In this document: positions 14,815 to 14,950 of the stretch, piece by piece
How the letters are laid out: each line of letters opens with the position of its first letter
How positions within the stretch are numbered: the first letter of the stretch is position 1
Source of the DNA: Escherichia coli
GTDB taxonomy: Bacteria > Pseudomonadota > Gammaproteobacteria > Enterobacterales > Enterobacteriaceae
Reading direction: 5' to 3' (one strand)
Assembly: GCF_030013595.1 (NCBI RefSeq)
Contig: NZ_CP122768.1
Length of the DNA stretch: 64,000 nucleotides
The notes under the pieces: generated by a model
Told to the model about the DNA's origin: nothing
What the model saw: only the letters and a program-made list of their open reading frames with translations
Databases searched by the model: none
Position numbers and translations under genes: made by a program

Positions 14815-14901
14815 ATGACTCACATCGTTCGCTTTATCGGTCTACTACTACTAAACGCATCTTCTTTGCGCGGTAGACTGGTGAGCGGCATTCAGAATTA
14901 A
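14815..14901 (+). CDS. leuL: leu operon leader peptide (28 aa) with four consecutive CUA Leu codons
   Basis: ATG at 14815, [28 protein letters not shown], stop 14899..14901; CTA x4 at 14842..14853; followed by attenuator. Confidence 0.92.
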
Positions 14902-14925
14902 GTCAGCACTCAGTCAAACAAAAAA

Positions 14926-14950
14926 CCCGCGCCATTGCGCGGGTTTTTTT
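14926..14950 (+). terminator. leu attenuator (rho-independent terminator)
   Basis: GC stem cccgcgc...gcgcggg followed by a T7 run immediately upstream of leuA. Confidence 0.9.

Follow-up and report, generated by a model that had tools for sequence, protein, structure and literature searches.

The leu attenuator in an Escherichia coli genome: a catalogued minority allele of leuL

The leader region 5′ of leuA in the DNA analysed here is almost certainly the leuL transcription attenuator of the leuLABCD operon, present as a natural minority allele that is already catalogued and that should work as the attenuators of E. coli K-12 and Salmonella do. The term window refers to the whole stretch of DNA analysed (64 kb). 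The expectation that the window allele behaves like that of K-12 comes from the identity of all core elements: control codons, antiterminator strands and terminator. The leader differs from K-12 by six base substitutions, which most likely represent a neutral polymorphism between lineages. The element is a classic and ordinary leu attenuator whose exact allele has been annotated publicly, and as such it matters very little; the value of the window allele is mainly as one more marker of a non-K-12 lineage. Coordinates are listed in Table 1.

Table 1. Features of the leu leader region in the window and bases that differ from K-12.
Feature	Position	Strand	Basis or remark
Putative −35 hexamer TTGACA, leuL promoter	14752–14757	+	sequence
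Weak −10 candidate TAACTC, leuL promoter	14775–14780	+	sequence
Shine-Dalgarno GGAG of leuL	14803–14806	+	8 nt 5′ of ATG; same in K-12
leuL leader peptide open reading frame	14815–14901	+	28 codons and stop; sequence, translation
Protector hairpin	14836–14882	+	minimum-energy folds
CUA leucine control codons (four, codons 10–13)	14842–14853	+	sequence; same in K-12
GCGCGG, antiterminator (preemptor) 5′ strand	14868–14873	+	pairs with 14927–14932
Variable patch	14879–14910	+	holds all six K-12 differences in leader
Codon 22	14879–14880		K-12 CGA, window CTG; R22L
Codon 26	14892		K-12 ATC, window ATT; silent, I26
Codon 28	14896		K-12 CAT, window AAT; H28N
3′ of stop codon	14903, 14910		K-12 C, window T; K-12 G, window T
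Intrinsic terminator (attenuator): A6, CCCGCGC, CATT, GCGCGGG, T7	14920–14950	+	sequence, Rfam, folding
leuA, first regulated gene	14994–16565	+	open reading frame list, annotation of identical genomes; followed by leuB, leuC, leuD

Leader, terminator and operon context

The leuL open reading frame starts with ATG at 14815 and ends with TAA at 14899–14901, as read from sequence and translation. Its control codons are the in-frame sequence CTACTACTACTA. CTA makes up 3.5% of the leucine codons in the 40 long open reading frames of the window, and at this usage four CTA in tandem have a chance probability of about 1.5e-6; (CTA)4 occurs once in the whole 64 kb. The leuL of K-12 has the four CUA codons too; they are canonical for E. 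coli (bioRxiv 10.1101/2021.05.27.446073) and thus not peculiar to the window allele.

The Rfam model RF00512 (Leu_leader; gathering threshold 50 bits) matches positions 14801–14950 (+) over its full length (model positions 1–148 of 148) with 143.1 bits and E = 5e-33, and leuA lies directly downstream on the strand of the leader. The leader peptide scores 68.9 bits against Pfam PF08054 (cut-off 25; K-12 peptide 76.5) and 76.6 bits against the equivalog model NCBIfam NF007397 (cut-off 59; K-12 peptide 80.9). The Rfam score, the CTA run and the z-score of the leader fold (below) show that the leader element is not a chance pattern. Matches to the Rfam Phe, Thr and Trp leaders in the window are far under threshold and cover the terminator only.

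The terminator consists of A6 (14920–14925), CCCGCGC (14926–14932), the loop CATT, GCGCGGG (14937–14943) and T7 (14944–14950). It forms a hairpin of 13 bp with a predicted energy of −19.7 kcal/mol followed by the T7 run, and its 5′ arm at 14927–14932 is also the 3′ strand of the antiterminator. From its end to the leuA ATG there are 43 nt. A consensus terminator scan of the window did not report the leu attenuator, because the A:U extension of the stem uses up the T-run. A minus-strand Leu_leader match at 14919–14973 (33.7 bits, sub-threshold) was rejected as the symmetric A6…T7 terminator read in reverse; this structure reads as a terminator both ways, and there is no convergent gene to use the minus-strand version.

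The original prediction had described a leu leader peptide with four tandem CTA triplets followed by a textbook terminator. The family matches, the codon coordinates and the terminator hairpin bear out all of this.

The gene leuO lies 5′ of the leader in divergent orientation. The start of the leuL transcript is presumably near 14788, 27 nt 5′ of the ATG, as in the K-12 annotation. The promoter elements in Table 1 were not reported by a simple consensus promoter scan of the window, because the −10 element is poor.

Attenuation of the leu operon was reportedly modelled for E. coli K-12 by Wessler and Calvo in 1981, and the leu attenuator of Salmonella typhimurium was reportedly described by Gemmill and others in 1979 and by Carter, Bartkus and Calvo in 1986. 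The window displays the parts of the Wessler and Calvo model: a leader with GGAG, ATG, 28 codons and four CTA, a terminator located before the first structural gene and, as predicted from masked folds, an antiterminator that is mutually exclusive with it. The K-12 leuL likewise lies between leuO and leuA in the same orientation, and it has the same length of 28 codons and the same first 21 residues. It also has the same Shine-Dalgarno sequence, four CUA codons, inner protector stem, antiterminator and terminator, but the outer helix of its protector is mismatched (G·G/C·A) whereas that of the window is fully paired. The leaders trpL, pheL, hisL, thrL and ilvL follow the same logic of a leader open reading frame, control codons and alternative helices, with other control codons and sequences.

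Ribosomes translating K-12 leuL pause on its four CUA codons, replacement of CUA by UUA cuts induction from 11.5-fold to 2.7-fold, and RNA density is 29-fold lower in leuA than in leuL (bioRxiv 10.1101/2021.05.27.446073). For Salmonella, PMC1183508 states that the rare CUA control codons set the sensitivity to leucine limitation, and quotes a lowered sensitivity after a change of CUA to CUG (Carter et al. 1986). The Salmonella typhimurium attenuator has the same mechanism, with three CUA codons according to the description in PMC1183508, against four in the window.

Predicted folds of the leader RNA

In the proposed mechanism, a leader RNA of about 160 nt would be transcribed and a ribosome would translate its 28-codon open reading frame. 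With a plentiful supply of charged tRNA-Leu for CUA, the ribosome would pass the four CUA codons. The protector (14836–14882) would then hold GCGCGG, the terminator (14920–14950) would form, and transcription would end 43 nt short of leuA. If leucine is scarce, the ribosome would stall on the CUA codons and cover the 5′ arm of the protector. GCGCGG (14868–14873) would then be free to pair with CCGCGC (14927–14932), no terminator would form, and RNA polymerase would continue into leuABCD.

The fold of the whole 163-nt leader has a z-score of −6.6 relative to dinucleotide shuffles. At equilibrium the full-length leader, with or without ribosome masks, always folds into the terminator, which is expected of a switch that works kinetically. 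The switch was thus analysed with transcripts truncated before the 3′ arm of the terminator and with a ribosome mask of −15/+14 nt, an arbitrary footprint.

In the minimum-energy folds the protector has an outer helix (14836–14846 with 14872–14882) and an inner stem (14856–14859 with 14867–14870), and it is predicted to sequester GCGCGG when the ribosome is not stalled. When the truncated transcript carries no ribosome, or one positioned at the stop codon, it forms the protector (14836/38–14846 with 14872–14880/82, plus 14856–59 with 14867–70) and leaves the 5′ arm of the terminator free. With the mask at Leu10 or Leu11, 14868–73 pairs with CCGCGC at 14927–32 in both alleles. When the mask is placed at Leu12 or Leu13, the minimum-energy fold lacks the antiterminator, a result that depends on the footprint assumed.

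The predicted switch is the same in the window allele and in K-12 in these masked, truncated folds, from which, and not from a kinetic simulation, it is inferred. The original prediction had held that the attenuation logic is intact and had proposed a search by folding for alternative structures. The folds do yield these alternatives, as predictions: the antiterminator with a stall at Leu10 or Leu11, and otherwise the protector. Together with the core elements shared with K-12, they point to an intact attenuation logic.

Differences from K-12

All six base differences between the leader transcripts of the window and K-12 are located in the variable patch (Table 1). Over its first 91 nt the leader is the same as in K-12; this part includes the Shine-Dalgarno sequence and start codon, the run of four CUA codons and the inner stem of the protector. 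The antiterminator strands and the complete terminator are identical as well. Outside of the leader transcript, the window differs from K-12 at a single base of the promoter spacer (14766) and at another after the terminator (14971). The divergence from K-12 is 2.7% over 3.2 kb, with 2.9% in leuA, 4.1% in the leuO–leuL intergenic region and 3.7% in the leader. Thus the leader is not an outlier relative to its flanks, and the window belongs to a non-K-12 lineage. The C-terminal part of the peptide had been predicted to differ from K-12 and to indicate such a lineage; R22L and H28N, and the divergence of the surrounding DNA, agree with both points, and the six differences found on alignment exclude exact identity with K-12 leuL.

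A pattern derived from the Rfam consensus, demanding T where E. coli has C (spacer CUUCUU), was used to scan species reference genomes for outgroup leaders. It yielded 38 leaders from Klebsiella, Kosakonia, Enterobacter, Pluralibacter, Yersinia, Pectobacterium, Erwinia, Pantoea and others. Escherichia, Salmonella and Citrobacter are outside of this set, and the polarity of changes rests on distant outgroups. A K. pneumoniae leader was added from the plasmid collection, where its chromosome is mislabelled as a plasmid; in the Buchnera leu plasmids of that collection the leader is absent. Several “plasmid” records (0.4–5.4 Mb) with leuL–leuA are evidently mislabelled chromosomes or chromosome fragments. 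The cross-genus alignment contains 40 sequences.

The Enterobacterales leaders share with the window three to four CUN leucine codons followed by AACGCA, then TGCGCGGTA, and a terminator of the form CCCGCGC….GCGCGGG with a T-run. Leu22 is common in them and the extended protector helix is present. Unlike these parts, the N-terminal residues and the spacer between protector and terminator differ widely from the window. In the 40-sequence alignment the inner protector stem, the antiterminator and the GC stem of the terminator are invariant and 95%–100% paired, and all six antiterminator pairs are invariant among 39 distinct sequences. The invariance of the terminator is not a search artefact, because the terminator is outside of the search pattern.

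The outer helices of the Rfam structure, which contain all six variant sites, are 54%–64% paired, which is not above shuffles, and show no covariation. Thus the variant sites are in the least constrained part of the leader. At 14879, 14880, 14892 and 14903 the window shares its base with many or all of the outgroups. The last residue of the peptide is freely variable (N, H, R or S), and arginine at residue 22 is found in 0 of the 38 outgroup peptides, which have Leu, Pro or Phe there. The six substitutions were also considered as compensatory changes in the Rfam consensus structure, and this was rejected: they gain the pair 14810:14903 and lose 14834:14879 and 14817:14896.

Codon 22 lies within the 3′ arm of the protector, where the Gly9–Leu10 codons pair with sequence 3′ of GGUAG. 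In the window allele, AUCGGUCUAC and GUAGACUGGU form ten contiguous pairs, whereas in K-12 (…GUAGACGAGU) the outer helix is interrupted by a G·G/C·A internal mismatch. The predicted energy of the protector is −15.1 kcal/mol in the window against −10.8 kcal/mol in K-12. Strictly identical behaviour of the two alleles is therefore not guaranteed, the protector of the window being predicted 4.3 kcal/mol more stable.

A regulatory tuning variant is one explanation of this difference. The CUG codon closes the 2×2 mismatch of the protector and would give tighter attenuation than in the K-12-type majority, so that the lineage of the window would express leuABCD at a lower basal level or have a raised induction threshold. 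Viewed in reverse, it is the K-12-type attenuator that would be derived and leakier. Such tuning is rather unlikely, though several observations are in its favor besides the protector energies. Among 16 distinct sequences with excised arms, the extended helix is 87.5% paired, against 23%–40% for a slid partner, and only the K-12-type is unpaired at extension pair 3. In three pairs of the helix both partners change (e.g. U-A becomes C-G, and G·U or G-C becomes A-U). The helix has a covariation score of 0.309, compared with 0.217 in shuffles, and 0 of 500 shuffles reach 0.309; the sequences sampled are few and phylogenetically clumped, and the register was picked after the fold of the window allele had been seen. 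The absence of Arg22 from the outgroup peptides adds to this, but the closest outgroups (other Escherichia, Salmonella, Citrobacter) are absent from the set. In addition, the energies are predicted, and CUG also lengthens a hairpin in the antiterminator loop, so that the net energy of 14860–14934 is similar, −18.7 in the window vs −19.9 in K-12. The K-12-type allele is present in about 98% of genomes, and it regulates well, as the 29-fold drop in RNA shows.

As CUG completes a covarying helix and no outgroup peptide has Arg22, the K-12-type looks derived; the comparison suggests that the majority allele is the derived form. A fuller version, in which the window allele retains an ancestral, fully paired protector and the CGA of the K-12-type (~98% of genomes) weakens it by about 4 kcal/mol, is offered tentatively and is probably not correct. 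If it were true, leu attenuation would have measurably different set points among natural lineages of E. coli, and it would be K-12, the textbook example, whose attenuator is atypical. All leu attenuation experiments take K-12 as their reference, and its protector appears to have an atypical mismatch that is absent from the window allele and from other genera; if this mismatch altered basal expression of the leu operon, it would provide a small case of natural variation in an attenuator set point.

The preferred reading of the six substitutions remains that of a neutral lineage polymorphism, and their clustering can be viewed in this light. Six differences in 32 nt (19% locally) have P ~0.08 under a uniform divergence of 2.7%, which is not significant. 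The clustering fits a constrained core together with a more tolerant stretch between protector and terminator. An improbable alternative is that recombination brought in the 32-nt patch, as a short segment from a divergent Escherichia lineage or from another species. The contrast between six differences in the patch and zero in the neighboring 91 nt would agree with an import, as would the presence of only two haplotypes among the genomes aligned, with identities over 236 nt that are bimodal (≥99% or ≤97.0%). Strain 7/2 also is exactly as the window over 14723–15315 and differs by 1.3% in the flanks. However, clustering of this kind is expected if the CUA codons, protector, antiterminator and terminator core cannot change, and leuA and the leuO–leuL intergenic region are equally diverged, which indicates that the whole neighborhood, rather than the patch alone, comes from another lineage.

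The window allele is not new; it is an already catalogued minority allele present in about 2% of complete E. coli genomes. The identical 236 nt around the leader recur in 60 or more complete E. coli genomes, which originate from several countries and hosts, and an identity of ≥99% over this segment is found in about 102 of 5,399 complete genomes, the rest having 95%–97%. In 27 of 5,426 complete E. coli genomes there is no match to the leu leader region. The exact peptide has the RefSeq entry WP_032141177.1 (“leu operon leader peptide”), is annotated as leuL in the identical genomes, and is present in the public protein collection as UniRef A0A1J8M029_ECOLX; at least 1,000 public contigs encode it. 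Other genomes, taken as a spread sample, have the K-12 peptide WP_001300467.1, and one sampled genome has a third peptide allele, S17F. A literature search for natural polymorphism of E. coli leuL yielded nothing relevant. Sequencing or assembly errors as the source of the differences are refuted by the recurrence of the same 236 nt in independent complete genomes and of the peptide on so many contigs.

Other features of the window

Over 8 kb the window shows 100% identity to two pig isolates from the UK, HCP5S3_I2 and LCP30S3_I5, and other genomes have ≤99.0%. HCP5S3_I2, the closest complete genome, is 100% identical to the window over 12000–20000. At about 22,550–22,700, immediately 5′ of the TPP riboswitch, the window is without the IS2 copy that HCP5S3_I2 has between espY2 and thiB (offset shift of 1,336 bp). 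Thus the window comes from a close relative of HCP5S3_I2 and not from HCP5S3_I2 itself.

The polB gene (32329–36018) is apparently interrupted by an IS10-like element, with the insertion at about 33,9xx–35,2xx. The polB open reading frame ends at 33924 and the remainder is at 35167–36018. The gap contains an Rfam RNA-OUT match (33922–33991 (−), 97 bits) and an open reading frame for a 402-aa IS4-family transposase (33984–35192 (+), NF033591, 402 bits). In HCP5S3_I2 polB is intact, and at this location the offset of the alignment changes by 1,338 bp.

In leuO, strain 7/2 has 9 differing sites within 55 bp at 13820–13874 (−), and 42 in 3.2 kb. The pattern suggests that, among strains with the window leuL allele, leuO has undergone mosaic recombination.

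Two differences from K-12 in gene content are found downstream of the leu operon. The setA gene, located between sgrT and leuD in K-12, is absent at about 19,675–19,935, where the leuD–sgrT spacing is about 108 bp. A type III secretion effector gene annotated as espY2 is located at about 21,891–22,460, between sgrR and the thiB riboswitch, a place that is empty in K-12. The SgrS small RNA (19709–19935 (−), 230 bits) and the thiBPQ TPP riboswitch (22701–22800 (+), 66 bits) are both ordinary and in their expected places.
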